A DNA stretch of 27,896 nucleotides, from the IMG/VR virus record IMGVR_UViG_3300032081_000130, positions 1 through 27,896 of that record; one strand, given 5' to 3'. Below the pieces are notes generated by a model that did not search any database, had not been told where the DNA came from, and was given only the letters and a program-made list of their open reading frames with translations. A program made the translations under genes and the position numbers. Numbering within the stretch: position 1 is the first letter of the stretch; each line of letters opens with the position of its first letter. Shown piece after piece: positions 5,309 through 20,111 of this stretch. The DNA comes from a virus. Its lineage: Duplodnaviria > Caudoviricetes.

Positions 5309-8300
5309 ATGGTAGCTGTGGCTAAGGAAAGAATCCGGCGGGCTTATTTTAATGCTATAGCGGCTGGAGAGACTGATGTTGCAGAAAAATTAGGTGATCT
5401 GCTAACTGGTCGAGGAGATATTCGCGCCCAACTCCCCGCTGCCACCCCCAGAGAAACCGGCATATTTGAGGACATTACCTCTGGATTCGGTGCAGGTGTT
5501 GTTGGTGTGGGTGAGATGGCTGCGCTTGGCCTTGCTGCCCCACTGGAAGAAGAAAGCGAACTTGCTGCAAGAAAAAAGATACAGTCTATTGCTGAGTCTT
5601 TTCGTCCTGAAGGCGGCGATCCTGAATCACCTACATATAAAGTAGCTTCCGGTATTGGCTCTATAGTCGGACTTGCGGGTATACCTATTGCTGCTGGAAT
5701 AGCCGGTGCCCCCGGTGCGGCTGCTTTAGGTATTGGTGCGTTAGCCGCCGGTGCTGCGGGCGCTGGAGAAGCAAGTGAACGTGCTCGTGCTGCGGATGCA
5801 ACAGAAGAAGAACGTGGGTCTGCAACTTTTCGCGGTTTAGGTATCGGGCTATTAGATATTATACCCGTCGCAAAAGTAGTTAAATTTGCCGATCTGCCTA
5901 CTCTTAACAGACTTATCGACAAGATACCTCCCGAAAAAGTCGAGACTATAGGTGAGCGCATCTACAGCGCAGGTGTGACAGGTGGACTTGAGGGTGCACA
6001 AGAAGCTGCGTCTAACATACTGCAAAATCTTAACGAACAAGAATATAACGCTGCCGCAGAAACATTTGGAGGCACGGCAGAAGAAGCCGCAGTTGGTGGT
6101 GCCGCAGGTGCCATACTCCAAGGGTTTGTTGATCTTTTTGCTCCACGAAAAGCTGGTAAGACTATTGGCGATGTTGCGGTAGAAAGAGAGTCGCTAGGCG
6201 AAATAGATTTAGAAGCAGAAGAAGTAGCACAAGAAGCGGCCCGTGAACGGGCGGGAGAAAGACAGGCTGACATGTTTGCCCTTGAAAAAGAGCAAGCAGA
6301 ACGACGTTTGGGGCCAGCTATGCGCCCCGAATCCGAAGCTGCACTACAAGCTGAGAGAGACAGGCTGTTCTCCGAAGAAACGCCAACCGAAGCCTCCGTC
6401 GCACAGCGTGACATCATAGATGAACTAGAAACGGTTGAAATTGAAGCCGCTATAGATGCAGAAGAAACCGCAGATATTGAAGCCTTAGTTGCGGCTGACA
6501 CTGATGCTGCGGATAAAGCTAAAACAGAGCAAGAGAGAATACGTACCGCATCTGAAAGAGAAGCACTCACAGGTGAATTGGATACTGCACAAGCTAAAAA
6601 GTCTGAACAGCGGCGTCGTGACATCTTATTAGACGTAATAGAAAACCAACCCACGCGGCAGTACAACACGTTGCGAAAAAGGTTTTCTCGTGCGCTAACG
6701 GCAGCGGGTATAACAAACACGCAACCAACAGAATCTGAATCCGCCACCATAGGACGAGCTATAGATGTTGCTCGTGCAGAACAAGATCCGCTTCCTGCCG
6801 CGTCTGATGTTTCAGAAATGGAAGCACAAATACCCGAAAAACGCACAGCTACTGAAACTCGCAAAATTGATCCAACAGGAGTACCTAGTGAGCAACGTCG
6901 TATACCCGATAGAGTTTTGGCACCGCGAAAAACAGGAGCTGTCGCAGAGCGAGATAGAGCAGGCGATGAAGCTGGTGTGTCAAGCGTGGATTCAGTGGGA
7001 GAGCGTGAAGATACCGGCGAGGTTGTTGCACTTGACGGACGAGCAGTGGGAGATGCTGGAAGAGACGCTGATGCAGTTGATGTTGGAAAAGGAAAACAGC
7101 GTGGTGCACTAGCTCGTAAGGTCAAAGCTAAGGTAGGTCGTAAACGTACAAAAGTTAGTATGTCTAAAATTGACCCTACCACGGGCGATGCAGAGGTTGT
7201 GTTCCCTGATGGCAGCGTGGAACGTGTTAGAAGAGAAGTATCTGTAGATCCCGACACTGGGAAAAAAGAGTTTAGCTTCATATCGCTTGATCGCCCTGAT
7301 CCCGACTTCCCTGCCGATGTAGGAGCACCGCTGATATTAGGTTCTACCAAAGAAACGGCTATTAGGAGACTAACAAAGGTTCGTGAAGCTCCACCTGTAA
7401 AACCTGTAAGAAGGATTACACCAGAAGAATTAGCAGAAAGACGTGTGGCTGAACGTGAGGCTAGTGAAATTGGAAAGATACGCACCGCTCAAAGAAATGT
7501 AAAAAGAAAAAGACAAGTTGCCAAAGGCGAAAAGGCTAGAGCAGAGCAGCGAGAACGCATAAAAACAGCCGACCCTAGGAAAATTAGGGCTGCACAACGT
7601 GAGGTTGCTGATAGGCTAGAAGAAATAGCTAAATCAAAAGAAGCAAGACGAGCAAGGAAGGAAGATGATGGGGTGCTTTACGCCCCTACACGTACGGAAA
7701 TCGAATTAGATTCGCCTATGCCGGAACAGGTGCAGAAAGCGCTACGTAATAATGAGTTACGACGTGCGTTATTAGGGTTAGCAGAATCTTCAAACAATAA
7801 GTTTATTAAGCGTGCAGCTAGAAAACTTGCCGACTATACAGGCGACACGCGAGTGCAGGTTGTACCACAAACAAGATTAGGTATGCGTGACGGTGTAAAT
7901 GTCGATGGTGTATTTGTTACTAAAGATAATACGATACTTCTTAGTGAAGATTACCAAGACACTTATATGTTCTTGCACGAGATGACACATGCCGCCACCA
8001 TTAACACATTACAAAATGGTGCACATCCAACGACCAAACGGTTGAGGAAACTATACGAAGATACAAAAGACTCTTTATCTTCTTACTACGGCTCTGAAAA
8101 CCTTGCCGAATTTGTAGCGGAGGCATTTTCTAATCCCAGATTCCAACACGAGTTAGGGCGTATAAATCCCGAAGGTAAAGAACTTAGCGCATGGCAGCGA
8201 TTCCTTAAAACGATTATGGACTTTATTGGGCTTGGCGGACTTGGCCCCAAGACAGCGCAGCGCGAAGCGGATCGTATGGTACAAGAGATATTGGCCCCTG

Positions 8301-11272
8301 CCGCCAAGCACCGTTATGGCCCTAATTTAGCGGCTACATCTGATAGACGCGGTATCGAAGAAACAGCTAGAACTATAAAAGCAAACACTAGAAACGTAAG
8401 AACCCAAGAGGGTAGAGAAAAAATAACCCGAGATTTTACGGCTCTTTTCGATAGAGAGGGGCCAGCTATCCAGAATGCAGAAAATGTGGCGTTGGGCTTG
8501 CTTCCTAATCAGTCAGTGCAAGATGTTGCAGAAGCAAAAGGCTTTGTTGGCGCAAAAGATGTACTAGAAGCTATAGAGTTCCAACGTGGAGATTTAACTT
8601 TTTCAGAGGCAAATACTCGTAAGCGTTTAGACCCTATATTCAGATGGGCCAACAACGCATCTGAAAAAACAATGAAGGCTTGGAACAATCTAATCTATGA
8701 CAGCACTTTGGACGAAGTAGATCCCGCTCTTACTCCTAAACAGGCTAAAGATAAGTATAAAAACCAAACTGTAGAAGGCACTGATCAGCTAAAAGTAGAC
8801 CGCCACAAAGAACTTCACGCTATATATAACAGTGGGGTGGTTGGCAAAGATGGTAGAAAAGCCTACGATGATTTGCGGCAGTTTTACAAAGATCAGTACA
8901 ACGAGTTAATCAACGCACTAAACGGTAGGATTGACAATTCTAACTTAGCGGACGATCAAAAAAGTACGTTAAAAAATGAACTCCTTGCAAGACTACTAGA
9001 ACGATCTAACGTAGAACCCTACTTCCCATTAACACGTTCTGGCACATACTGGCTATCAGTAAAAAATCCTGAACAACTGTCTGATTCGGCGGTGTTTGCT
9101 TTTGAATCGGCTGGCGACAGGGTAGCAGCGGCAGAAGAGTATAAAGCGCAAGGGCTTGAAGTTGAGACTTTTGATCCCGATTCTTCTAACACTTATGAAA
9201 ATCCTCCACCGGGAAAATTTGTATCTCAGGTACTGAACGTATTGAATGTAAGTGGCGCTGATCCTGTGGTGGTAGAGCAAGTAATGCGATTGTTTCTTGA
9301 ATCCTTACCTGAGTCTTCTTTTGCTAAAGCCTTAATAAGAAGAAAGAAAACAGCAGGTTATGACGTTGATGCAGTAGAAGCAGCGAGAACAAAAGCATAT
9401 GACTTAGCACGGCAGACGGAGCGAATAAAAAATACAAACAATATCCAACGCCTAAAAGATCAATTTTTAGAGGCTCACAAAGAACGTGGTGATGACCCTG
9501 TTGTTAGAGAAATAGCAACTCGCGCTGATTTTGCCACCAGTCCACCTAAAGACAGCCTTGCAAAAAATGCAAACCGCATGGCGTTCCTATGGACTATTGG
9601 ATTTAACCCATCTTCTGCAATAGTAAACCTGTCTCAAATACCGTTGTTTGCTTTCCCGATGTTGGGTGGGAAGCATGGGTTTAAAGAAACTGGTGCGGCA
9701 ATCAAAGACGCAACAAAACTATTTATGGGTTCACCCACTAGCAGAACCGCAGAAACTTTGTTCGGTGATGCTCGTACACCCGCTTCTATTAGAGAAGCCT
9801 TACGTAGTAGTGAGCCGGGAGCATTACTTGAGGCCGTTAGAGATAAAGCGTTACCGTCATTAGATAATTATTATACGCTCACTAGAGATAAAGACGGTGC
9901 GTTTATAGCAACGGTTCGGAAAGATCTGGACATACCTAAAGATAAAAGAGCAGAGTTAGATAGTCTCAAACCCTTGCTAGAACTTGCAGCGCGGCGAGGC
10001 CAACTTAATTCTTCTTTCATAGCCGATACTCTTAATGTCGATCAGTCGGGCCGAAAGCTGACTTTTATGGACAGAATAACCAACGCTTCTGCGTTAATGT
10101 TTCATGAAGCGGAAGTCATGAACCGTCAAGTTACATTAGTCTCGGCGTATAATCTTGCACTGAACAAATTAACAGGTGGTAAGAAACCTACATTAAAACA
10201 ACAGCAACAAGCCGCAGAAGAAGCAATATACGAAACACAGCAGATTAACGGCGGTGCAACCCTAGAAACTGGCCCACGCTTTGCGCGAGAAAGCATTGGT
10301 CGCGTAGCTCTGATGTATAAGAACTACGGCATTCAGATGTACTACACGATGTTAAAAACTGGCAAACAGCTAGCCGATAACATGTTCCCCGGTGATGACG
10401 TTAGAAGCAGAGAACTGCGTAACGAAGCATTTAAGCAGCTTGCAGGAGTTCACTTATCCGCATTGTTCTTCGCAGGGGTGCAAGGATTGCCGTTATACGG
10501 CGCGGCGTCAATGTTGTATGACCTGTTTACAGAAGAGTACGAAGAAGATGCCGATATTGTGGTGCGTCGCTACCTAGATAATGAAATGCTGTACAAAGGA
10601 GTTTTATCAGAGGTATCAGGGTTAGATGTATCGCAGCGCGTAAAATTAACCGACCTGCTGTTTGAAGCTGACAGATTCAACAGTGATCCTTCACCCGAAG
10701 AAGAGTTCGCTCATTTGTTTGGTGGCCCTGCGTGGAGTGTGTATTCCAGAGGTAGAAAAGGCATAGATAAACTTGCAGAGGGTGATGTATTACGAGGTAT
10801 TGAAGATCTACTACCGGGTGCCGTAAGAAACGCTACTCAAGCATTGATTAGATACCCACTAGAAGGCGGTATCCGCACTCGACGTGGAGACCCAATATAT
10901 GACGATATAACGACGGGCGACTTACTTACCAAACTGCTTGGGTTTCCGCCAAATGAATACACTAAGCAGATGGATGAGACTTCTGCCGCAAAGCGATTGC
11001 AAGATGCTACCAGAGCTAAACGCTCGCAGTTACTGAAGAAGTATTACATAGCAGGGCGTTTTGGCGATACAGAAGGTCAAAAAGATGCGTTACGTGAGAT
11101 GGACGAATTTAATGAGTTATCTGTTATACGTGTTGATCCCAAGCTGTTTATAAAAGGAAGCACAATAGATAAGTCTCGCGCTAGACATGAGACAACAAGT
11201 GCAGAAGTGCATAACGGCGTACTATTGTCTCCAAACTTCAAAAAACTTGTACAAGAGGCGGGTTTCTTATAG
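5309..11272 (+). CDS. Giant polyvalent-type internal virion protein with zincin metallopeptidase (MPTase-like) and PLxRFG-like domains
   Basis: 1987 aa. N-terminal Gly/Ala hydrophobic segments; FLHEMTH (HExxH, 7976-7990) with downstream EFVAEAF; YFPLTRSGTYW (9020-9052); long helical C-terminus. Last gene of the + arm. Confidence 0.75.
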   Translation: MVAVAKERIRRAYFNAIAAGETDVAEKLGDLLTGRGDIRAQLPAATPRETGIFEDITSGFGAGVVGVGEMAALGLAAPLEEESELAARKKIQSIAESFRPEGGDPESPTYKVASGIGSIVGLAGIPIAAGIAGAPGAAALGIGALAAGAAGAGEASERARAADATEEERGSATFRGLGIGLLDIIPVAKVVKFADLPTLNRLIDKIPPEKVETIGERIYSAGVTGGLEGAQEAASNILQNLNEQEYNAAAETFGGTAEEAAVGGAAGAILQGFVDLFAPRKAGKTIGDVAVERESLGEIDLEAEEVAQEAARERAGERQADMFALEKEQAERRLGPAMRPESEAALQAERDRLFSEETPTEASVAQRDIIDELETVEIEAAIDAEETADIEALVAADTDAADKAKTEQERIRTASEREALTGELDTAQAKKSEQRRRDILLDVIENQPTRQYNTLRKRFSRALTAAGITNTQPTESESATIGRAIDVARAEQDPLPAASDVSEMEAQIPEKRTATETRKIDPTGVPSEQRRIPDRVLAPRKTGAVAERDRAGDEAGVSSVDSVGEREDTGEVVALDGRAVGDAGRDADAVDVGKGKQRGALARKVKAKVGRKRTKVSMSKIDPTTGDAEVVFPDGSVERVRREVSVDPDTGKKEFSFISLDRPDPDFPADVGAPLILGSTKETAIRRLTKVREAPPVKPVRRITPEELAERRVAEREASEIGKIRTAQRNVKRKRQVAKGEKARAEQRERIKTADPRKIRAAQREVADRLEEIAKSKEARRARKEDDGVLYAPTRTEIELDSPMPEQVQKALRNNELRRALLGLAESSNNKFIKRAARKLADYTGDTRVQVVPQTRLGMRDGVNVDGVFVTKDNTILLSEDYQDTYMFLHEMTHAATINTLQNGAHPTTKRLRKLYEDTKDSLSSYYGSENLAEFVAEAFSNPRFQHELGRINPEGKELSAWQRFLKTIMDFIGLGGLGPKTAQREADRMVQEILAPAAKHRYGPNLAATSDRRGIEETARTIKANTRNVRTQEGREKITRDFTALFDREGPAIQNAENVALGLLPNQSVQDVAEAKGFVGAKDVLEAIEFQRGDLTFSEANTRKRLDPIFRWANNASEKTMKAWNNLIYDSTLDEVDPALTPKQAKDKYKNQTVEGTDQLKVDRHKELHAIYNSGVVGKDGRKAYDDLRQFYKDQYNELINALNGRIDNSNLADDQKSTLKNELLARLLERSNVEPYFPLTRSGTYWLSVKNPEQLSDSAVFAFESAGDRVAAAEEYKAQGLEVETFDPDSSNTYENPPPGKFVSQVLNVLNVSGADPVVVEQVMRLFLESLPESSFAKALIRRKKTAGYDVDAVEAARTKAYDLARQTERIKNTNNIQRLKDQFLEAHKERGDDPVVREIATRADFATSPPKDSLAKNANRMAFLWTIGFNPSSAIVNLSQIPLFAFPMLGGKHGFKETGAAIKDATKLFMGSPTSRTAETLFGDARTPASIREALRSSEPGALLEAVRDKALPSLDNYYTLTRDKDGAFIATVRKDLDIPKDKRAELDSLKPLLELAARRGQLNSSFIADTLNVDQSGRKLTFMDRITNASALMFHEAEVMNRQVTLVSAYNLALNKLTGGKKPTLKQQQQAAEEAIYETQQINGGATLETGPRFARESIGRVALMYKNYGIQMYYTMLKTGKQLADNMFPGDDVRSRELRNEAFKQLAGVHLSALFFAGVQGLPLYGAASMLYDLFTEEYEEDADIVVRRYLDNEMLYKGVLSEVSGLDVSQRVKLTDLLFEADRFNSDPSPEEEFAHLFGGPAWSVYSRGRKGIDKLAEGDVLRGIEDLLPGAVRNATQALIRYPLEGGIRTRRGDPIYDDITTGDLLTKLLGFPPNEYTKQMDETSAAKRLQDATRAKRSQLLKKYYIAGRFGDTEGQKDALREMDEFNELSVIRVDPKLFIKGSTIDKSRARHETTSAEVHNGVLLSPNFKKLVQEAGFL

Positions 11273-11365: not shown

Positions 11366-11587
11366 TAAGATTCTCCAAACACGAACACCCACATGTGGAT
11401 TTTCTATCACCCCTTTAGCTCTTATATCCCATCCTTTCCTGTTAACACAAATGGTCTTTAGTTGTTGTATCGCTTTATCAGTATTGATACATGGTATAAA
11501 CACAGAGCTACCGACAACCATATCCTCCCATTTGACCACTATATGCACGCCATCAGGGTTGAGATCGTCTAGTTTTACTACAGACAT
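11363..11587 (-). CDS. Small conserved phage protein (VGxS.F...RVWR type)
   Basis: 74 aa; WEDMVVGSSVF...GVRVWRI; start overlaps the upstream stop (TGATG). Confidence 0.75.
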   Translation of the reverse strand: MSVVKLDDLNPDGVHIVVKWEDMVVGSSVFIPCINTDKAIQQLKTICVNRKGWDIRAKGVIENPHVGVRVWRIL

Positions 11588-11883
11588 CAGGAACCGTGAG
11601 TGCGTACCAACCTGTGTATTTCGTTTCCTTTGCGGTAAAACCGCCGTGTGATATTGCTTATCTTGGATGGCGACACTTGCAACATATCTGCTATCCCCGA
11701 TCTAGGCACACCCTTCGCTTGTAAATCCAACACTCGCTCCGCAAGTTTTATATCAATCAATTTACTGGTGGGTTTCTTCTTAACGTCCTGCGGTAGTAAC
11801 CCGTTCCGATTTTTCTTATTCTTCCACAGCTCCTTCACTTTCTCCTGTGCTTGTATTGCTTGCAGAAACATCCCGCTCATCAT
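11587..11883 (-). CDS. Putative helix-turn-helix DNA-binding protein
   Basis: Basic ~98 aa; GVPRSGIADMLQVSPSKISNITRR fits an HTH pattern. SD GGAGGAG lies just upstream, so the start may be the second or third Met. Confidence 0.7.
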   Translation of the reverse strand: MMSGMFLQAIQAQEKVKELWKNKKNRNGLLPQDVKKKPTSKLIDIKLAERVLDLQAKGVPRSGIADMLQVSPSKISNITRRFYRKGNEIHRLVRTHGS

Positions 11884-16838: not shown

Positions 16839-16867
16839 ATGGTAGTGGTAGGCTATGACTTATGCAA
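16839..16867 (-). promoter_or_regulatory. Putative sigma70-type promoter TTGCAT-N17-TACCAT
   Basis: Exact 17-nt spacer. It lies in the only gap between the helicase stop and the HTH/SSB/primase gene run. Confidence 0.5.
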
Positions 16868-18395
16868 GTATTTCTTTGTATAAATCAATAATTTTTGTGT
16901 GCGTATCTATCTTATTATCTAGTAATGAGTAAACACGCTTTTCGATGTGCGATCCCTGCAACTGCACAACTGTGCACTTGTGATCTTGCCCCGCTCTGTG
17001 CACACGCGCATTGGCCTGTGCATACGTTTCGACTGAGCTTGTTGGCCCCCACCATACCACAGTATTTGCAGCGGTCAGTGTAACTCCATGCGCTGCGGCT
17101 TGGGGTTGAATCACTAAGACTCTGGGGGCATCCGAGGTTTGGAATGCTTTGAATATATCAGTGCGTTGCGAAGCAGAAACAGCACCGCTAATTACTTCAG
17201 TAGTGATACCGTCTTTACGTAGCTTATCGGCAAGCAGCTTAATCGTGTGTTTGAACGGAACGAACACCAGCACTTTCTTACTCGACTCATCTATAACCTC
17301 ACGCAACACTTTGTATCGGTGCTTGATGTCGAACTCCAATGTCTCGCCGCCATCTGTATAGACCGCACCAGAACTTATTTGCAGGAGCTTGTTCATGTTT
17401 ACGGCTGCGGTATTGGTGGTAATCTCCTCACCAGCCGCCTGCATAATCATTTTGTCTTTCAGTTCTTTGTAGTATTTCTGCTGCTGCCGAGTCAACTCAA
17501 CCTCTCGTTTGGTATATACGATCTCAGGCAGGTCGAGGCATTCTTCTTTTGTAAATCGAATCGCAGGTTGCAATGCTTTGAAGACAGTTTCAGTAGCGTC
17601 GGGCTTGGGTATCCACTTAAAGTTAGTCACCTTGTACATGACCATATCTCTGAACGACCCAAAGAACCGAGGCACAGATTTGGGATTAACAAGTTTTGCT
17701 AGGCCATAGGCATCGACAGGACTCTGGGCGGCTGGTGTACCTGTTAACATCCAAAGCCATTTGTCGGAGCCAAGCAATCTGTTCAGTGTCTTCCATCGTT
17801 TCGTCTGTGCGTTCTTGTAGTGAGTTGCCTCATCAACAATTATCAAATCGAACCCACCGTCTGCTACAGCGTCCGCCACAATCTCTACTCCGTCATAATT
17901 TATTATGACGAACTTGGCATCTCCACCAACTATTTCTTCACGTTTCTTAGCAGAACCGTAGGCAATATCTACGGTACGGTGCATCGCAAAGGTAAACAGA
18001 TCTTCTTTCCATGCAGAATCCATGATCGACAACGGGCAGATGATAAGCACCCGATTGATCTTACCTTGGTTCATTAAAAAATCTGCTGCCCATATCGCAC
18101 TGGCTGTCTTGCCAGTGCCCTGTTCGTTAAAACAAAAGGCTCTCTTGTTGAGCGTGAGAAAAGATGAAGTAGTCTTTTGGTGGGCAAACGGTTTGTGCTT
18201 ACCCGTCCACTGGTACTTACCTTCGATAGGCGACGGTGCCTTGATACCAAGATTCTTTAGTACATGCGTTTCATCAATACCCCAATTAACCACTACCTTG
18301 TTATCAGGTAGTGCTTTACTTTTTGGTATGACCTGCGTGACTTTCTCTTGATTGCGGAGCCTGAGTAATAAGGCTTTGTTGTCTATGACTCTCAC
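16860..18395 (-). CDS. SNF2-family (SF2) helicase
   Basis: NEQGTGKT (I), IIVDEATH (II), LTGTP (III), GVTLT (V), QANARVHRAGQ (VI). The GTG start overlaps the upstream TAG. Confidence 0.92.
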   Translation of the reverse strand: MRVIDNKALLLRLRNQEKVTQVIPKSKALPDNKVVVNWGIDETHVLKNLGIKAPSPIEGKYQWTGKHKPFAHQKTTSSFLTLNKRAFCFNEQGTGKTASAIWAADFLMNQGKINRVLIICPLSIMDSAWKEDLFTFAMHRTVDIAYGSAKKREEIVGGDAKFVIINYDGVEIVADAVADGGFDLIIVDEATHYKNAQTKRWKTLNRLLGSDKWLWMLTGTPAAQSPVDAYGLAKLVNPKSVPRFFGSFRDMVMYKVTNFKWIPKPDATETVFKALQPAIRFTKEECLDLPEIVYTKREVELTRQQQKYYKELKDKMIMQAAGEEITTNTAAVNMNKLLQISSGAVYTDGGETLEFDIKHRYKVLREVIDESSKKVLVFVPFKHTIKLLADKLRKDGITTEVISGAVSASQRTDIFKAFQTSDAPRVLVIQPQAAAHGVTLTAANTVVWWGPTSSVETYAQANARVHRAGQDHKCTVVQLQGSHIEKRVYSLLDNKIDTHTKIIDLYKEILA

Positions 18396-18706
18396 TACTG
18401 TGATTCCGACTTAAACAAAACAAGATGGTGTCTGGCTAAGGCGTTCAAGAGTTCAAAGAAAGAATCGATGCCGAGTCCATCTATTGCGTATATCTCTTTT
18501 ACAGTCCACTCAACTAAGTCTTTCACGTATAAAATGCCTGCACCGCGCAAGCAGTTTTGTGTGCGACTATTGAGATTTAGCTCTCGTATGTGCATCTCTG
18601 TTTTAATTGAATCCATATCCCTTCCAATAAAAAGTGTGGTGGTTGGTGGAATTGACGCCTTCAACTCATCGCATTCTCGGACGATGCGTGGGGGGGCGTG
18701 CTTCAT
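18395..18706 (-). CDS. Stand-alone RNA polymerase alpha subunit C-terminal domain (alpha-CTD)-like protein
   Basis: IRELNLNSRTQNCLRGAGILYVKDLVEWTVKEIYAIDGLGIDSFFELLNALARHHLVL aligns without gaps to E. coli RpoA [58 protein letters not shown] (recalled sequence). Alternative start at 18616. Confidence 0.85.
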   Translation of the reverse strand: MKHAPPRIVRECDELKASIPPTTTLFIGRDMDSIKTEMHIRELNLNSRTQNCLRGAGILYVKDLVEWTVKEIYAIDGLGIDSFFELLNALARHHLVLFKSESQ

Positions 18707-18791
18707 TCCACCCTTTCTTTAACAAGGCTCAAGGATAACGCCTCGGAGAGAAGTCGGATGCCACCACTCACCCGACTCGTATGCCCCCACT

Positions 18792-18830
18792 AAAAAAGTC
18801 CCGTCTTCGGTCACACGGACGGGAACGTGC
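18792..18830 (-). terminator. Hairpin plus U6 tract (intrinsic terminator/attenuator), alternatively an H-type pseudoknot
   Basis: Minus strand reads GCACG-T-TCCCGTC-CGTGT-GACCGAA-GACGGGA-C-TTTTTT: a 7-bp stem followed by six T. Confidence 0.55.
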
Positions 18831-18943
18831 TAACTAGGAGAAAGGATACCCCCTGACCTAAGCCATTAAATACAAAATATACGCTACGAGATATATACCA
18901 GCAGCGACACCAACTCCAGCCAAAATACCTTTGACCTCTTCGC

Positions 18944-19246
18944 TCACTGCCTACGCCGTGGTCGGGCAGATGCTTTCTTCAAGGGCTTCTTACCATTACG
19001 ACTACGGTTGGCGCTTTTACTTTCCACACGCACGCCGTCTTTATTTGAACCACCACGGCTTAACGGCTTATTGTGACTTACGTCTTTGCCTTCACGTTTG
19101 TCTGCTCTACCATCTCCGTTGGCATCGCGGCTTGTTCTGTCCATAGCTCTACGCGCACGTTGTCTTTCCATACGTGCTTCATGCGCCCTGCTACCCACAG
19201 GCGGATTCTTTTGTTTCTTACGATCTTTTGGATTCTTGTACGGCAT
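18944..19246 (-). CDS. Small basic HNH-like protein
   Basis: GKDVSHNKPLSRGGSN...VESKSANRSRN resembles an HNH beta-beta-alpha core. Start re-assigned to MPYKNPK, which overlaps the exonuclease stop (TGATG). Confidence 0.7.
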   Translation of the reverse strand: MPYKNPKDRKKQKNPPVGSRAHEARMERQRARRAMDRTSRDANGDGRADKREGKDVSHNKPLSRGGSNKDGVRVESKSANRSRNGKKPLKKASARPRRRQ

Positions 19247-19917
19247 CAGTTCCTTCCATTGTGTGGGCATTCCGTGACAGGACAGTGCCGTTTGCACAAT
19301 CCACTAGGGCTTGGGTTCCATACGTCAGCATCAAACGATGATTGCATATCCCCATACCTAGCTAGCCATTTAACCCATAAATTACTTTCTTCTTGTCGTG
19401 TAAAAGTTTCCTTTATAAGGTCACTACTTACCACGAACAATAAGCCTGCCCGAACAGTCTCCACTTCGGGGTAGTGCTTAAACATAGCTAAGGTCATCAA
19501 TTCTAGCTGGCCTTTGTCTGCATATCTTGCGGACTTACCTGTCTTGTAATCAACAACCCACGCTAACTTGTCCTCACGATCCAGTATCACAAGATCTGCA
19601 ATGCCTCTGAACCACACATCCTTAGCAAAGAAACCGCATGGCTCTAAGTCCTTAGTCAGACCCATCTTAATCTCACACAGCTTCTCACCTTTCTTGGCGT
19701 TCAGCGCGTCAAGTGTATTCTTCGCATAACTAAACCTAGGGTCTAGTTCACCACCATCACGTACGTAAGTCTCCGCAGCTTCGTGAAAAGCTGTTCCATA
19801 CAACGTGGCCTCAGTCTCCTTGAACGGGTACTGCTTGAGCACCTTCTCATGGTAGAACTGCTTGGGGCATTGTTGGAATGCCTTGATCTTACTGAATGAC
19901 CACGGTGCTACGCTCAT
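19246..19917 (-). CDS. PD-(D/E)xK exonuclease, Cas4/RecB-like
   Basis: WSFS...QCP, GTAFH, RGIADL, VVDYKTGK, QL, and C-terminal CKRHCPVTEC (1+3 Cys cluster). Confidence 0.9.
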   Translation of the reverse strand: MSVAPWSFSKIKAFQQCPKQFYHEKVLKQYPFKETEATLYGTAFHEAAETYVRDGGELDPRFSYAKNTLDALNAKKGEKLCEIKMGLTKDLEPCGFFAKDVWFRGIADLVILDREDKLAWVVDYKTGKSARYADKGQLELMTLAMFKHYPEVETVRAGLLFVVSSDLIKETFTRQEESNLWVKWLARYGDMQSSFDADVWNPSPSGLCKRHCPVTECPHNGRN

Positions 19918-20111
19918 TCGATTGGAAGATCAAATGTCAGCTTAAAGTCACGTAACTCAGATACAAGTAGTGCCATGAGAGCTTGGTCAAATGTTATATC
20001 TCTATTGCTCAGACTCTGTAAACGTGTCGCATCGTCTATGACATCATTAGCGTTTTCACGCCGCAGAAACTCATCTAGCGTTTGTTCCTCTTCCTGTTCG
20101 CGGTAACTCAT
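19914..20111 (-). CDS. Hypothetical protein (65 aa)
   Basis: MSYREQ... start overlaps the polymerase stop (TAATG); the stop overlaps the exonuclease start (ATGA). Confidence 0.65.
   Translation of the reverse strand: MSYREQEEEQTLDEFLRRENANDVIDDATRLQSLSNRDITFDQALMALLVSELRDFKLTFDLPIE

Follow-up and report, generated by a model that had tools for sequence, protein, structure and literature searches.

A free-standing RNA polymerase alpha-CTD encoded as an optional cassette before the SNF2 helicase gene of an uncultured tailed phage

To our knowledge the phage factors known to act on the C-terminal domain (alpha-CTD) of the alpha subunit in host RNA polymerase modify it or block it. One of these, gp67 of the staphylococcal phage G1, reportedly targets alpha-CTD-dependent host transcription. 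The gene described here would share that attack point with G1 gp67 and with T4 Alt/ModA, but whereas those factors modify or block the domain of the host, here the phage gene encodes a copy of the domain itself. In T4 infection residue R265 of alpha is ADP-ribosylated, as given in the part of PMC9638938 drawn on here.

Detached alpha-CTDs are already an annotated class in phages, of which the present family is a minimal new member. In BFVD 'RNA polymerase alpha subunit C-terminal' is the name given to entries from uncultured phages and from Rhodococcus phage Finch and Mycobacterium phage Mithril, and fused copies occur in the cultured Microbacterium phage Atraxi (gp24), Ruegeria phage V16 (gp23) and Bacillus phage Goe8 (c00050). 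The latter three contain a detached alpha-CTD with R265, N268 and G296 kept (E. coli numbering is used throughout) and a drifted 297/298 hairpin, and Atraxi gp24 has a W at 284 as does the present family, but they are fusions of 139-288 aa whereas here the domain is bare, at 66-73 aa. V16 gp23 (L236:2423-3289) joins an alpha-CTD with an intact 265 determinant to a RefSeq-annotated pyrophosphatase domain. Goe8 c00050 (L238:1959-2591), found twice in its record among small genes near the left genome end, joins an N-terminal region of 150 residues to a well-conserved alpha-CTD, and Goe8 offers a culturable system for the function of a phage alpha-CTD. Similar bare clusters of 72-78 aa are present in the ESM Atlas, 50-60% viral among their few labelled members. 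Bacterial proteins with tandem or sigma-region-4-fused alpha-CTDs resemble the phage ones in that the domain is detached and its positions are kept or drift in the same way, but they are multi-copy, range from 119 to about 1300 aa and often contain Sigma70_r4, with the RpoA N-terminal domain in 2 of the 56 scanned. Up to about 10 tandem alpha-CTD-like domains, without the alpha N-terminal domain, are seen in P0015, P0016, P0018 and P0020. Two PHROGs families, phrog_34844 and phrog_1660, match a tandem alpha-CTD protein, one of them being labelled PmgS-like; alpha-CTD-like domains may sit unnamed in that collection. A search of the open-access literature, judged at title and abstract level, found no functional study of a phage-encoded free alpha-CTD.

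The window, by which is meant the whole stretch of 27,896 nucleotides analysed (IMG/VR record IMGVR_UViG_3300032081_000130, Caudoviricetes), is a fragment, the virus record being about 45% complete. Its minus strand encodes a replication module of an AAA ATPase, a VWA protein, a family A polymerase, a PD-(D/E)XK nuclease, the SNF2 helicase, SSB and a DUF927 primase, and its plus strand ejection-type genes. A 1987-aa LPD39/DarB-like protein is found at 5309-11272, and the plus strand at 3-2021 encodes a highly acidic protein containing extended D/T repeats and recurrent motifs of the D-x-D-G-D-G type. Where a sequencing run containing the stretch gives a habitat, it is marine. Among isolates the nearest are phages of the proteobacteria Pseudomonas, Rhizobium and Acinetobacter, with only 36-42% identity (polymerase, helicase), and the one match to a genome contig is a helicase fragment, without upstream DNA, on a contig of a Parvibaculum MAG. 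The features that matter for what follows are these:

16860..18395, minus strand: SNF2-family helicase with a GTG start (PF00176, PF00271, phrog_62)
18395..18616, minus strand: stand-alone alpha-CTD gene of 73 aa, start corrected (PF03118, AlphaFold2, presence/absence unit)
18617..18706, minus strand: 30 extra N-terminal codons of the original prediction, likely untranslated leader that is open in frame by chance
18619..18625, minus strand: Shine-Dalgarno sequence GGAAGGG, from alignment with L008 and L010; it precedes the helicase ATG in gene-less relatives
18800..18830, minus strand: H-type RNA pseudoknot of 31 nt with 5-bp and 6-bp stems (covariation, 71 distinct copies)
18944..19246, minus strand: small basic protein, phrog_4590, the upstream boundary of the variable slot

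By profile and by predicted fold the product of 18395..18616 is a true alpha-CTD. In the minus-strand reading frame 18706-18395 PF03118 (RNA_pol_A_CTD) is the sole Pfam family, over 58 residues (E 8.2e-12, 45.1 bits, cut-off 23.8), and the 73-aa form gives 46 bits (E 4.4e-12) against that curated cut-off; all 12 aligned alleles of the gene match the family. The alignment to RpoA of E. coli K-12 is ungapped, with 21 identities over 60, and so the alpha-CTD likeness originally described over about 58 residues was sound. An AlphaFold2 model of the 73-aa form (pLDDT 88.5) superposes on the B. subtilis alpha-CTD 1z3e_B with a VIA Z of 12.6 and an rmsd of 1.2 over 67 residues, that model having been searched against 48,161 chains, and among the matches listed in a Foldseek search of the PDB every one was an RpoA chain. 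A generic HhH or SAM domain had been named beforehand as the identity that would refute the prediction; this was rejected on the PF03118 profile and on structure, the best non-alpha-CTD chain in the same search, the N-terminal HhH domain of RAD51C, reaching Z 7.6 and SAM domains at most 5.3. HHH_5 gives a weak match in 7 of 12 alleles, and in PHROGs neither the window protein nor two further alleles have a family. Compared with the alpha-CTD of RpoA (PF03118; E. coli RpoA 249-329; 1z3e_B, 1lb2, 2jzb) the phage protein shares the predicted fold and R265, N268, G296 and S299, but differs in an unrelated C-terminal loop after about residue 314 and in having neither linker nor assembly domain. Neither RNA_pol_L nor RNA_pol_A_bac was found among 27 ORFs scanned in this about 45% complete record, in which the gene is the sole PF03118 match. 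With linker and assembly domain absent from the 73-aa ORF the protein is unable to join the polymerase, as had been claimed.

The gene had been given as 103 codons, 18395..18706, and is better placed at 73, 18616-18395. In the relatives L002, L003, L005 and L006 shifts of frame and an indel of 82 nt disrupt its first 30 supposed codons, while the frame that starts behind GGAAGGG, at the 18616 ATG, is unbroken. Those codons (18617..18706) are also present in the gene-less L008 and L010, whose helicases are 91% identical and in which the GGAAGGG site leads directly into the helicase ATG, and the unit missing from gene-less contigs is 18395-18617. The ATG at 18616 is therefore very likely the start, and the 103-aa frame was rejected because its first 30 codons are broken in relatives and the absence unit ends at 18617. 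From the frame breaks, the L008 and L010 site and the contigs that skip the unit it seems that a 73-codon cassette uses the helicase ribosome-binding site, which it captures on insertion so as to leave the helicase on an overlapping GTG. That overlap (TAGTG, alpha-CTD stop and helicase start) is plain in the DNA, as first reported, and because the two codons overlap translational coupling to the helicase may be supposed.

A profile search recovered the gene from 20 viral loci in three lineages, namely A (85-100% identical to the window), A' (about 72%) and B (35-44%, 66-68 aa). As originally described, the window allele keeps R265, N268, C269, G296 and S299 of E. coli RpoA, reads G-L-G-I-D at 294-298 and has R/E/N in place of the D258/D259/E261 sigma-contact patch. 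Across the family R265, N268, G296 and S299 hold in 10/10 alleles tabulated but C269 is a lineage trait, and the altered hairpin (N294G, K298D) belongs to A and A' (12/20 loci), lineage B having N294, K298 and G269 (8/20). K298D as a family signature was rejected on these counts, and the protein allele P0006 has A at 298. The residue at 297 varies (I, T, A, G or W) but is never basic in the family, whose net charge is -2 to +1.

Determinants were taken from the part of PMC10853779 drawn on here, which lists R265, N268, N294, G296, K298, S299 and E302 as the 265 (DNA-binding) determinant, with R265, N294, G296 and K298 as DNA-contact residues. The baseline was 7 RpoA sequences, 2 of 9 rows having been dropped (Fusobacterium, misaligned in the ungapped comparison, and Priestia, an unannotated possible paralogue). 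On that definition the 265 determinant is invariant in 7/7 RpoA and is kept at 5/7 positions in A and A' and at 6/7 in B, where E302 is changed. The 261 determinant, defined from the same part, is kept at 0/4 in the window allele (I-R-E-N against V-D-D-E) and is partly acidic in other alleles; in RpoA 259 and 261 are acidic in 7/7 and 258 in 6/7. Of the eight E. coli residues given there for the 287 (CRP-contact) determinant two are kept, and every allele has K at 287 (V287K), never seen in the 7 RpoA although 287 varies among them. The R265 face thus appears the best-kept surface, with the acidic sigma-4 (261) patch and the CRP (287) patch of RpoA gone. Titration of CRP-type class I activators, part of the original prediction, is unlikely given the state of the 287 determinant and K287 throughout, an E. 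coli-like host being assumed.

How unusual these changes are can be judged from detached domains elsewhere. A representative search gave 543 matches at E<=0.001, of which the best 150 were listed and 149 analysed to give 405 domains, a set chosen by likeness to the query that includes a few RpoA with duplicated CTDs (2/56 scanned). In these 405 domains from the best 149 of 543, R265 is kept in 84%, N268 in 75% and G296 in 88%, whereas K298 is seen in 46%, D298 in 3%, E261 in 15% and G294 in 30%. Judged by these frequencies detached copies typically drift at such sites, and only K298D is unusual (298 is K in 7/7 RpoA compared and D in two phage lineages). The rewiring of hairpin and patch, put forward as special, is at 261, 294, 297 and 298 normal among detached alpha-CTDs.

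The reading preferred, to which we give a probability of roughly 0.45, is that the 73-residue free alpha-CTD acts in trans as a decoy that binds host transcription factors via its R265 face. It would be made from the helicase's own ribosome-binding site, probably during the replication phase, would not enter RNA polymerase for want of linker and assembly domain, and with sigma-4 and CRP patches lost would be unlikely to bridge a promoter complex, at least in an E. coli-like host. The 265 face takes proteins as well as DNA. Factors that use this face off DNA, SoxS/MarA-type activators with NusA-AR2 or Spx-type factors as candidates, would be soaked up and the host response dampened. In the parts of the sources used, SoxS attaches to the 265 determinant and engages polymerase ahead of DNA (PMC9638938), and NusA-AR2 binds the alpha-CTD (PMC5842316). 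With R265 kept and the lysine hairpin weakened, a free domain would be better suited to sponging up proteins than to binding DNA. Lineages A and A' have both retained K298D and N294G although their synonymous divergence is near 1.2, and this, like the net charge, fits reduced DNA binding. Against a decoy, the invariant residues are those best kept in any detached alpha-CTD and may reflect fold rather than partner, and lineage B, with N294, G296 and K298, could bind DNA.

Lineage B leads to the rival in which the product is a small DNA-binding protein whose HhH face competes at A/T-rich promoter-upstream DNA or coats phage DNA. The DNA-binding determinant being the best-kept surface speaks for this, as do the weak HHH_5 matches, the annotation of the Atraxi homologue as 'DNA binding protein' and the retention in B of all four contact residues as defined in the part of PMC10853779 used. 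The acidic 298 of A and A', a 297 that is never basic and a net charge near zero speak against it. A single untethered alpha-CTD moreover binds DNA weakly, and overall this account is unlikely.

Whether the protein matters at all is partly answered by selection, and purifying selection among homologues, the absence of which would have told against the original prediction, was found. Between A and A' dN/dS is 0.13-0.17 (about 0.15; 4 pairs), A against B being near synonymous saturation. Within lineages A and B pooled there are 29 non-synonymous to 17 synonymous changes, a dN/dS of about 0.5 (p 0.019 against neutrality), with far stronger constraint on the helicase at 0.03-0.06. Between the window and L005 the alpha-CTD gene has 10 non-synonymous to 3 synonymous differences, a neutral ratio, against 4:20 in the helicase (Fisher p 8e-4). 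All 12 distinct full-length alleles are open, a count that left out two truncated loci and L090 with its duplicates; the L090 allele and its duplicates have a 4-residue deletion just before R265, and the database protein P0014 has a frameshifted tail. The protein is then under purifying selection between lineages and under weak selection within them, with surface change that is either relaxed or diversifying.

Presence of the gene is sporadic. The 80 best helicase relatives were returned and the 71 with enough upstream DNA surveyed; four carry the gene and 67 do not, and by helicase identity it is present in 2/2 at >=99%, 1/5 at 90-99%, 1/19 at 79.5-90% and 0/45 below. It lies directly before the helicase in 19/20 viral loci, the other having an intervening 61-codon gene, and wherever the flank of a surveyed locus was long enough phrog_4590 lies upstream of the helicase. 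Contigs in three of the four runs examined (X1, X8 and X9, from two studies) skip 18395-18617 with near-identical flanks, both forms coexisting in X8, and mapping presence onto a helicase tree of 34 chosen rows takes 7 changes, of which well-supported branches force at least 5. Between the window and L002 dS is 0.046 for the alpha-CTD gene and 0.92 for the helicases, and therefore the cassette moves by recombination. In other relatives the same slot holds an HTH-like gene, short orphans or, one position further up, an HNH-like gene. The alpha-CTD gene is thus an optional, dispensable cassette in a slot common to unrelated small genes, not the core host-takeover factor proposed, and its adjacency to the helicase, once read as a functional link, is no sign of one in a slot of this kind.

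The slot has other occupants worth recording. The HTH-like gene, of 88-95 aa, is just before the helicase in L020, L050-L053, L055 and L060, and a similar-looking small HTH gene follows the primase in the window (11587-11883, minus strand). A second 61-codon orphan (L002:4163-4348; P0008) also fills the slot, and in L002 its first eight bases are those of the helicase start, which suggests cassette exchange via start/stop micro-homology. In L065 and L066, gene-less lineage-B backgrounds, the HNH endonuclease-like gene lies upstream of the pseudoknot, about 540-130 nt before the helicase, and could drive exchange in the region.

Such turnover is what a nearly neutral passenger might show, a domain of old acquisition that is passed around by recombination at this slot, under selection for its fold only and of little current benefit. 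The forced gains and losses, the coexisting forms in X8, the near-neutral recent divergence in some pairs, the two damaged alleles (L090, P0014) and a slot that also accepts unrelated genes are all as this predicts. Set against them are the A to A' dN/dS, a fold motif that survives between A and B at about 42% identity and the open state of every distinct full-length allele, and near-identical alleles in diverged helicase backgrounds fit selection as well as drift. A passenger is not a likely account. The decoy reading too has counted against it the 10:3 ratio of window and L005, the damaged alleles and the absence of the gene from most relatives.

The DNA ahead of the gene bears on a further proposal. 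It had been described as a structured leader, yet as a whole its 346 nt fold no better than shuffles (z -0.32), and whole-leader structure was rejected; what stands is a conserved 31-nt pseudoknot about 180 nt upstream of the true start. In its 71 distinct copies 98.6% of cells are paired with 19 double-sided changes, as against 0/500 shuffles and at most 57% in slid controls, counts that lean favourable since the seed search fixed much sequence and structure was read from the same copies. Stem 2 has one double-sided change only. A seventh stem-2 pair forms in 47/71 copies; in the CPK-1-type compact pseudoknot used for comparison, a one-nucleotide loop 1 lies over a stem 2 of 6-7 bp. G-U pairs point to RNA. 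An exact 18-mer from the motif occurs in 109 viral stretches (L094-L202), with one to three copies per locus, three each in L014, L016, L060, L062, L099 and L188 and one in the window. The motif is often 15-30 nt before a start codon, the downstream phage genes being varied, and a Shine-Dalgarno-like word plus start codon follows within 35 nt in 46/67 distinct contexts (by regex, some spurious). Rfam gave no motif match in window 17500-20000 (E<=5) or in 8 motif loci (E<=1). It is likely to be a movable 5' unit that serves the stability or translation of mRNA, and since loci with and without the alpha-CTD gene both have it, it is a separate element. Between it and phrog_4590 a 30-codon hydrophobic ORF (18850-18944, minus strand) overlaps the stop of the basic protein and keeps frame in several aligned relatives, a possible small membrane peptide. 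A sigma-70 promoter scan of 18300-19100 gave 0 sites, and the lone terminator-like match there, inside the alpha-CTD gene, is at chance level. All runs being contigs, the RNA-library run X1 has none over the alpha-CTD gene, because its population lacks the gene, and X2 contigs cover the leader only.

That the protein regulates the phage's own replication operon, via helicase, leader RNA or a phage activator, would fit its place directly before the helicase and the stop/start overlap, but in most relatives that operon works in the absence of the gene, alleles pass between diverged helicases without co-variation, and the pseudoknot does not depend on the presence of the gene and precedes many unrelated ones; the proposal is very improbable, the complex prediction of the protein with the helicase (score 0.00) being uninformative either way. 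Most improbable is a conflict decoy absorbing R265-directed ADP-ribosyltransferases or alpha-CTD-dependent prophage activators, for although R265 is invariant and is the residue that T4 ADP-ribosylates (PMC9638938), lambda CI activation uses alpha-CTD (PMC1874639, both as far as the parts used go) and surface positions, 297 among them, change rapidly, the two patches that CI uses, 261 and 287, are lost and no such enzyme, host or competitor is tied to the phage.

Overall a decoy for host factors that dock on the R265 face is the preferred reading, and how far it pays would depend on the host, in keeping with the repeated gain, loss and allele turnover. The anti-defence role once suggested gains no support from the analysis. 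A stronger version, in which phages use bare alpha-CTD copies as swappable decoys and this family, its sigma and CRP patches gone and in two lineages its DNA contact as well, is a pure protein sponge whose rapidly changing surface tracks a host stress activator or NusA, seems doubtful. If that version held, host takeover would involve a protein that directly imitates a core domain of RNA polymerase, and comparing natural alleles with D298 and with K298 would tell a protein decoy from a DNA binder. The class not being new and the gene being dispensable, the surprise is limited. The family is nevertheless a minimal test case, one domain of 66-73 aa having alleles with and without the DNA-contact lysine, to which near-identical phage populations with and without the gene add value, and a demonstrated function, if found, would serve a recurring unstudied class.
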